IMG/VR virus record: IMGVR_UViG_2563366825_000027
Coordinates: 1-15,180 of that record
Strand: one strand, 5' to 3'
DNA: 15,180 nucleotides
DNA from: a virus
Lineage: Duplodnaviria > Heunggongvirae > Uroviricota > Caudoviricetes
A program made the translations under genes and the position numbers. Below the pieces are notes generated by a model. It did no database searches. It had not been told where the DNA came from and worked only from the letters and a program-made list of their open reading frames with translations. Below are positions 12,185 to 12,270 of the stretch, in pieces. Position 1 is the stretch's first letter, and each line of letters begins with the position of its first letter.

Positions 12185-12270
12185 GCTACACCGTGATAAC
12201 TAAATACTACACCGTGCTTATTTAAAGTCAAAGTTTTTTTGCCTACACTGTGTAGCAATGCTACAGCGTG
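12185..12270. promoter_or_regulatory. Divergent promoter/operator region with four copies of an 11 bp CTACA-N2-GTG motif
   Basis: gCTACAccGTG (12185-12195), aCTACAccGTG (12206-12216), cCTACActGTG (12242-12252), gCTACAgcGTG (12260-12270); a 13 bp palindrome CTACACtGTGTAG at 12243-12255. The region lies between the divergent Arc-like and Mnt-like starts. Confidence 0.5.

Follow-up and report, generated by a model that had tools for sequence, protein, structure and literature searches.

Between the divergent start codons of two genes for ribbon-helix-helix (RHH) repressors, a tailed-phage genome of the class Caudoviricetes (IMG/VR record IMGVR_UViG_2563366825_000027) carries a cluster of short, nearly identical repeats. 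The whole stretch analyzed here, positions 1 to 15,180 of that record, is referred to as the window. One of the two repressors resembles Arc and the other Mnt of phage P22, and the question raised by this locus is whether the repeats are operators and, if so, which of the two proteins reads them. P22 Arc and Mnt are textbook models of RHH DNA recognition. Based on a comparative analysis of sequences, we propose that the repeats are operators of a P22-type immunity-I (immI) switch and that they are used by both the Arc-like and the Mnt-like repressor, a reading to which we assign a probability of roughly 0.7. That at least one of the two repressors binds here is more probable still.

The two start codons, one ATG at 12171 (minus strand) and another at 12282 (plus strand), are separated by a gap of 110 bp, from 12172 to 12281. 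A pattern search of the window revealed four copies of CTACA-NN-GTG in this gap, all on the plus strand: CTACACCGTG at 12186-12195 and again at 12207-12216, CTACACTGTG at 12243-12252, and CTACAGCGTG at 12261-12270. Written as CTACANNGTG, the search pattern matched the plus strand at 12186, 12207, 12243, and 12261 and the minus strand once, at 12246-12255. The match on the minus strand arises because 12243-12255 is a perfect 13-bp palindrome, CTACACTGTGTAG (CTACAC-T-GTGTAG). A repeat search also grouped the four copies into one family, spaced by 21, 36, and 18 bp, and showed no second repeated motif in the 110 bp. Altogether, five pattern matches were found in the 15-kb window against 0.29 expected, and none of 200 shuffles reached five. 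In a simulation that allows for the freedom to choose any 8-of-10 gapped word, four copies within 110 bp were obtained in 0 of 20,000 mononucleotide shuffles and in 29 of 20,000 Markov-1 simulations. Exact TACACNGTG occurs elsewhere in the window as a single copy, within the J gene.

An earlier reading made from the letters alone (the sequence-only reading) had described a 110-bp separation of divergent RHH starts and, within it, four near-identical 11-mers at 12185, 12206, 12242, and 12260, the third of them embedded in a 13-bp palindrome. The separation and the palindrome are exact, and the four positions are correct, with the 10-bp pattern beginning one base later. The motif is thus real, but its unit turned out to be a 13-bp palindrome rather than the 11-bp direct repeat that had been proposed. 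Read as 13-bp units, the predicted operators are O1 (site 1, 12186-12198, plus strand, CTACAC-C-GTGATA), O2 (site 2, 12207-12219, plus strand, CTACAC-C-GTGCTT), and O3 (site 3, 12243-12255), which is the one perfect palindromic copy in the window. The fourth copy, site 4 or O4 (12261-12273, plus strand, CTACAG-C-GTGCAG), lies directly upstream of the Shine-Dalgarno sequence of the mnt-like gene. O1, O2, and O4 retain the left half-site and the GTG; in O1, the right arm is degenerate.

Approximately 30 related loci were gathered by scans that used the Mnt-like protein, DNA patterns, or an Arc-like protein alignment as the query. Conservation was counted over 16 distinct alignable intergenic versions, with the number of non-majority sequences per column as the measure. 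The TACAC and GTG cores of sites 1-3 showed a mean of 0.38 and the promoter hexamers a mean of 0.50, compared to 3.55 for the remaining columns (Mann-Whitney p = 3e-8 for the cores of sites 1-3 versus the remaining columns). Specifically, the core of O1 is kept in 15 of the 16 variants, the TACAC and GTG core of O2 is nearly invariant, and CTACACTGTG of O3 is invariant (16/16). Among these variants, the centre of sites 1 and 2 is either C or G. At the centre of O3, T is found in nearly all lineages examined, the exceptions being the related loci L090 (G) and L194 (A). The conserved columns beyond the cores are accounted for by the promoter hexamers.

The motif recurs in distant lineages, where it stands beside divergent RHH pairs in the same layout, namely O1, the -10 of the arc strand, O2, a TTGAC -35, and O3. 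Motif and layout were found in L109, L193, L196, L194, L090, L155, the L228-L289 group, and the Erwinia phage Midgardsormr38, and distant relatives likewise place the operator between a -35 and TAG(T/A)(A/G)T. L109 carries CTACACCGTG twice, 21 bp apart, together with CTACACTGTGTAG, and L090 has three copies of the motif. In L155, a perfect 17-bp palindrome, GGTTACACGGTGTAACC, is accompanied by two more copies; the extended 17-bp palindrome of relatives reads GGTTACAC-G-GTGTAACC. L196 and the L228-L289 group have two or three 13-bp CTACAT-N-ATGTAG palindromes, some of them imperfect, and Midgardsormr38 has CTACACGGTGTGT and CTACACTGTGTAA. The backbones that bear the motif comprise a lambda-like siphovirus, P22-like podoviruses, the Erwinia phage, and GC-rich environmental contigs. 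From this recurrence as 13-bp palindromes across lineages, CTACAY-N-RTGTAG is predicted to be the operator of the family, a palindrome of 13 bp akin to the operator of P22 Mnt. The distance from O1 to O2 varies from 20 to 24 bp between lineages, which argues against strict helical phasing and for autonomous palindromes. The same variation disfavours an arrangement in which one dimer per site is bridged by an Mnt tetramer over O1 and O2. A scan with the L155 protein added one new locus, L181, with a different strand and different repeats.

The one strong promoter-like site that a consensus scan found on the minus strand is the predicted arc-ant promoter (Pant-like, 12204-12231), which has a -35 of TTGACT (12231-12226), a 16-bp spacer, and a -10 of TAGTAT (12209-12204), and matches the consensus at 9 of 12 positions. 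An A7 tract on the plus strand (12234-12240) lies just upstream of this -35 and is UP element-like. Transcription of arc-ant would start near 12197. O2 is located within the spacer of this promoter and overlaps its -10, and O1 covers approximately +3 to +12, just after the start. On the plus strand, the candidate mnt promoter (Pmnt-like, 12221-12249) consists of TTTAAA (12221-12226), a 17-bp spacer, and TACACT (12244-12249); this assignment, which we infer, would place the -10 inside O3. The candidate is backed by the near-invariant T at the centre of O3 and by leaderless-type layouts in L155 and L090. A fixed T in O3 together with variable centres in O1 and O2 fits a TACAYT that doubles as operator and mnt -10. 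Other candidates for the mnt promoter were weaker, with poor hexamers or a lack of conservation: TTGCCT-17-TACAGC, an extended -10 TAGCAAT, and a P22-like back-to-back arrangement with a -10 of TAAAGT. A 24-nt inverted repeat across O3 and O4 might form a hairpin in the mRNA that hides the ribosome-binding site; this reading was set aside, as the left arm of the repeat lies upstream of the predicted start and its O4 half is not conserved.

The genes around the gap assign the locus to a complete P22-type immI module of ant, sar, arc, and mnt. Judged by sequence, this identity is secure because an ant gene with Bro-N and P22_AR_C domains, two Arc-family RHH genes, a sar RNA, and a full-length homologue of P22 Mnt occur together. 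The arc-like gene (12031-12171, minus strand; Pfam Arc, E = 5e-13) encodes a protein of 46 amino acids (MKVRDIAPLGIRIP...) and is the first gene of the arc-ant operon. The best solved relatives of its product are P22 Arc and pArc, and NCBIfam assigns it to YlcI_YnfO_N. The mnt-like gene (12282-12530, plus strand; Pfam Arc, E = 6e-8) encodes 82 amino acids (MKGARDISPLGIRIP...), and the best solved relative of its product is P22 Mnt (1mnt, E = 1.6e-5, residues 4-76). The identity with P22 Mnt is 32.5% across residues 4-79 (tblastn), and the sequence alignment to 1mnt extends through the C-terminal part. A Shine-Dalgarno sequence, AGGAGG (12272-12277), precedes the ATG of this gene; an alternative ATG at 12258 is not conserved among relatives. 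The ant antirepressor gene (11054-11968, minus strand, 304 amino acids) matches Pfam Bro-N with E = 2.6e-20 and P22_AR_C with E = 3.5e-25. The sar antisense RNA (11970-12036, plus strand; Rfam RF00262, 69.4 bits versus a gathering score of 43) sits in the arc-ant gap and opposes the ribosome-binding region of ant. A promoter scan predicted its promoter at 11934-11962 (GTGAAA-17-TATACT with an upstream TG), and a terminator scan found a hairpin at 12001-12032 that is followed by a T-run.

The features by which an immI module is recognized can therefore be compared with P22 one by one. The P22-type ant gene, the Arc-type gene just upstream of it on the same strand, the divergent Mnt-type gene, and the sar RNA opposite the start of ant are all present. 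Instead of two different operators, one per repressor, the window has one repeated word and an RDIxPLGIRIP strand shared by both proteins; this single operator word with a common strand is the main departure from P22. The likeness to the P22 locus covers gene order and orientation, the sar RNA, the Bro-N/P22_AR_C ant protein, and the pairing of a short Arc-type with a long Mnt-type RHH repressor. Furthermore, it includes one operator in the interval that separates the two hexamers of the arc-ant promoter and another just after the start. The P22 annotation places Oarc in this interval of Pant and Omnt just past the -10; sites 2 and 1 thus hold the positions of Oarc and Omnt, respectively. The sequence of P22 Omnt is AGGTCCAC-G-GTGGACCT (GGTCCAC-G-GTGGACC), and site 3 with its flanks reads CCTACAC-T-GTGTAGC. 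Like Mnt-type operators, O3 is a palindrome on one central base pair with a CAC-N-GTG core. The two loci also differ. P22 has two operators, Oarc (ATGATAGAAGCACTCTACTAT) and Omnt (AGGTCCACGGTGGACCT), and two beta-strands, whereas the window has one word three to four times and one strand. Moreover, Pmnt of P22 overlaps Pant back to back, whereas the mnt promoter of the window appears to have an operator, O3, of its own.

The sequence-only reading had taken the flanking genes for RHH repressors of the Arc/Mnt type, which the Pfam Arc and 1mnt matches and the complete module with its sar RNA bear out. Its comparison of CAC-N-GTG with the core of the P22 Mnt operator was also accurate, since P22 Omnt and site 3 share this core about a single central base. 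Its proposal that the repeats are likely operators is supported for sites 1-3, which are as conserved as promoter hexamers and recur beside homologous repressor pairs; the fourth copy is not conserved. Where it had left the choice between one or both repressors, both are most likely, as the DNA-reading strands are the same.

This last point rests on the comparison of the two repressors. The arc-like and mnt-like proteins of the window share 57% identity over 35 residues, including a common R-D-I-x-P-L-G-I-R-I-P. An alignment of eight proteins from six loci revealed I6, P8, G10, R12, and P14 to be invariant, and P-x-G-x-R is kept by the short and the long partner in every relative of the subfamily that was examined. 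With the same arm and strand in both repressors, both probably bind the same sites. In addition, the arm of the long partner varies together with the operator. Long partners with an arginine four residues before the strand proline (ARDIS, MRNIG, MRSIS, MRTIA, TRDIA, TRDIN) are found with CAC-N-GTG operators, and those with serine or alanine at this position (ASNIA, ASLIA, ASQIA, VANIA) with CAT-N-ATG operators. P22 Mnt (ARDDPH, CAC-G-GTG) agrees with this pattern. As the covariation concerns the long partner only and includes few independent transitions, we treat it as a lead. The idea that an arm arginine reads the centre-adjacent guanine in the Arc-like partner too was dropped, as xRNIPPTGIRFP occurs with both GTG- and ATG-type operators.

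The strongest competing explanation is that the sites serve only one repressor, for example an Mnt-like tetramer, and that the Arc-like protein reads another element or a subset such as O2. P22 itself provides the precedent, as its Arc and Mnt use separate operators. The covariation points in the same direction: the centre-adjacent base tracks an arm residue in the long, Mnt-like partners but not in the Arc-like ones, whose xRNIPPTGIRFP type stands beside both CAC-N-GTG and CAT-N-ATG. Furthermore, the arc-like and mnt-like proteins differ outside the strand. Against these points, the two proteins have their DNA-facing residues and their arm (R-D-I-x-P-L-G-I-R-I-P) in common. The 110 bp offer no second repeated motif to a separate Arc-like reader, and the other conserved columns are promoter hexamers. 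Finally, O2 occupies the position of P22 Oarc, yet it is the same word as O1. On balance, we consider binding by a single repressor unlikely.

Considerably less probable, in our view, is that the repeats are by-products of promoter architecture (the -10-like TACACT and TAGTAT), of a tandem duplication, or of an inverted duplication of the gene starts. Some features could be read in this way. O1 and O2 sit inside a 21-bp tandem repeat of 76% identity, and O2 and O3 overlap -10-like hexamers. A 32-nt inverted repeat (12131-12162 versus 12294-12325, 75% complementary) is formed by the 5' ends of the two repressor coding sequences, and O1 with its flank (12182-12195) is mirrored at 93% by the right arm of O3 with its flank (12246-12259; ATTGCTACACCGTG versus CACTGTGTAGCAAT). 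Taken together, the inverted repeat of the gene starts and this mirroring are consistent with an ancient inverted duplication of an operator plus reading head, from which the control region and both reading heads may have arisen. A by-product would, however, hardly account for a conserved word that is longer than a hexamer and includes a GTG without a promoter role, nor for O1, which overlaps no promoter element. Perfect palindromes persist in lineages whose surroundings cannot be aligned, and the core is fixed while flanks and central base drift. Similarly improbable is binding by another regulator (a host factor, the main repressor of the prophage, or Cro) in place of the adjacent RHH proteins, as the motif accompanies the repressor pair in phage backbones and hosts that are unrelated, changes from CAC-N-GTG to CAT-N-ATG together with the adjacent Mnt-like arm, and occurs only once elsewhere in the 15-kb window.

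Several observations weigh against the proposal that both repressors use these repeats, and it needs to be read with them in mind. The first concerns the reading heads. In P22 Mnt, the DNA contacts are reportedly made by Arg2, His6, Asn8, and Arg10, as described by Knight and Sauer; in the alignment with 1mnt, the mnt-like protein has Arg, Pro, Gly, and Arg at these positions, so that the arginines are kept and His6 and Asn8 are replaced. The base-contacting strand residues of P22 Arc are said to be Gln9, Asn11, and Arg13 in the 1PAR structure; the aligned positions of the arc-like protein are Pro8, Gly10, and Arg12, with the arginine alone kept. Two of the three beta-strand positions that contact bases in P22 are consequently proline and glycine in both repressors of the window. 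Secondly, the candidate mnt promoter matches the consensus at just 8 of 12 positions, below the threshold of the scan. The best-looking site, O3, moreover lies on the promoter of the repressor itself and not on the ant promoter, which is awkward unless O1 and O2 cooperate. Thirdly, site 4 varies like background, with a mean of 3.22 non-majority sequences per column, which leaves its status as an operator weak. In close relatives, its position is taken by GCACAGCGTG, ATACACTGCGTAG, TCACAGTGCAG, or an inverted CAAGGTGTAG, and no recognizable counterpart was found in L109, L196, L155, L090, or Midgardsormr38; we regard it as a putative weak or auxiliary site. In addition, many of the related sequences are close kin, so that the footprint statistics overstate their independence, and a literature search found no paper on this immI allele.

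With both repressors acting on the same sites, the switch could operate as follows. In the lysogen, the Mnt-like protein, made from a weak rightward promoter together with the ClpP-like gene, would bind O2 and O1 and thereby shut the arc-ant promoter; occupancy of O2 in the spacer and -10 and of O1 past the start would turn this strong leftward promoter off. Occupancy of O3, which holds the -10 TACACT, and perhaps of O4, would turn off the rightward promoter of mnt and the ClpP-like gene, so that the Mnt-like protein would restrain its own production. Following infection or derepression, the leftward transcript would supply the Arc-like protein, which would bind the same sites and bring both promoters down. 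The sar RNA would add an antisense block on the translation of ant. By analogy with Omnt and the heptads of the omega repressor, each palindrome probably takes two dimers. Site occupancy per protein, stoichiometry, and order of affinity are those that we infer for this scheme.

The omega repressor of plasmid pSM19035, also an RHH protein, recognizes arrays of 7-bp heptads, direct or inverted, each heptad being bound by one dimer. The likeness lies in half-sites of 6-7 bp with a CAC-type core that are direct or converging. Two related loci, L195 (Ga0164242_10144491) and L205 (Ga0335069_10057909), have four half-sites (CTACAC, CTACAT, GTGTAG, or ATGTAG) without a GTG partner, and their repressors are without the arm arginine. 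Their direct CTACAC repeats resemble the omega arrangement and suggest that the 6-bp half-site may be the unit read by one dimer. The omega repressor differs in protein lineage and role, and the locus in the window has no arrays of 7-10 heptads.

To our knowledge, no immI allele other than that of P22 has characterized operators. In phiv205-1 and EC.P3, the intergenic -35 region and the T-tract are homologous to the window. The alleles of phiv205-1/EC.P3, Kapi1, and the 'MSDRKYKNPQVNLRLP' types nevertheless differ from it in that their Arc and Mnt strands are unlike each other and their control regions carry other repeats. The control regions of phiv205-1 (L003, 1902-2015), EC.P3 (L004, 2051-2164), and Kapi1 (L002, 1797-1828) contain different repeated words; in phiv205-1, for example, there are TTTGNTATWC-like repeats, and an AGATA...TATCT inverted repeat lies in the Pant spacer. 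Within the window, the mnt-like gene is followed by a gene for a ClpP-related protein of 178 amino acids (12530-13066, plus strand; Pfam CLP_protease, E = 1.6e-11; NCBIfam ClpP-related head maturation protease below cut-off), whose start codon overlaps the stop codon of the mnt-like gene in the sequence TAATG. In the lysogen, the ClpP-like protein and the maintenance repressor are probably expressed together. An mnt gene paired with a ClpP-like gene also occurs in phages phiv205-1 and EC.P3, whereas another gene takes this position in E. coli W4.

The immI cassette of the window, ant-sar-arc and mnt-clpP-like, is approximately 2.1 kb long and is inserted between the lambda-type tail genes L (13123-13827) and K (10262-10999). 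Tail genes I and J follow K, and the backbone is that of a lambda-like prophage. A P22-like prophage of E. coli W4 has the same allele, at 95.6% identity, with a tailspike gene as its neighbour; in P22-like prophages (L088), the cassette likewise adjoins the tailspike gene. The full region was found in just 19 of 5,426 complete E. coli genomes. In P22, the module is located between gene 16 and the tailspike gene according to the literature; its place in the window is between siphovirus tail genes. The immI 'ant moron' has been described as a mobile cassette that varies among phages, with the P22 version as the only one studied (Villafane et al., PMC2629481), and the alleles of phiv205-1/EC.P3, Kapi1, epsilon34, and CUS-3 are of the same mobile cassette type (PMC2629481). 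The locations in the window and in W4 fit such a mobile 'ant moron' (PMC2629481), and the cassette appears to be an example of one moving between podovirus and siphovirus late operons.

Other genes of the window were noted in passing. Immediately upstream of tail gene L is a Gram-negative porin gene (14017-15180, minus strand; Pfam Porin_1, E = 1.8e-139), the 5' side of which falls at the end of the window. We take it to resemble the phage-borne porin morons of the Lc/NmpC type. Rfam gave a borderline hit to sok, the antitoxin RNA of hok/sok, at 5665-5822 on the minus strand (59.6 bits versus a gathering score of 59), in the interval from J to the side tail fibre gene. Further downstream than a tail fibre gene (3891-5393) and a tail fibre assembly-like gene (3296-3871), a gene at 1542-2816 on the minus strand encodes a protein of 424 amino acids with a YadA-like membrane anchor domain of the trimeric autotransporter adhesin type, possibly a lysogenic conversion gene.

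The module type is already known and operators are expected between divergent repressor genes, so that the finding is unsurprising in kind. New are the predicted operator word, its family-wide palindromic form, the three-site architecture, and the apparent single specificity of both repressors. Beyond this locus, we tentatively suggest, at somewhat less than even odds, a widespread and undescribed immI-type subfamily in enterobacterial, Erwinia, and environmental phages. In this subfamily, both repressors would share the P-x-G-x-R strand and CTACAY-N-RTGTAG, with labour divided by timing, oligomeric state, and site geometry, and an arginine in the arm of the long partner would go with CAC-N-GTG and serine or alanine with CAT-N-ATG. 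If this is true, the split between establishment and maintenance would not come from DNA sequence specificity, unlike in P22, and the arm residue with the centre-adjacent base pair would form a simple natural specificity code for an N-terminal arm. Repressor pairs that naturally have one reading head in common, a clean palindromic operator, and co-varying variants of arm and operator make this allele suited to two questions, namely how RHH proteins with a single base-contacting strand residue achieve specificity and how a two-repressor switch works on a single operator word. The allele also bears on the range of prophages in which an incoming antirepressor cassette is open to silencing.
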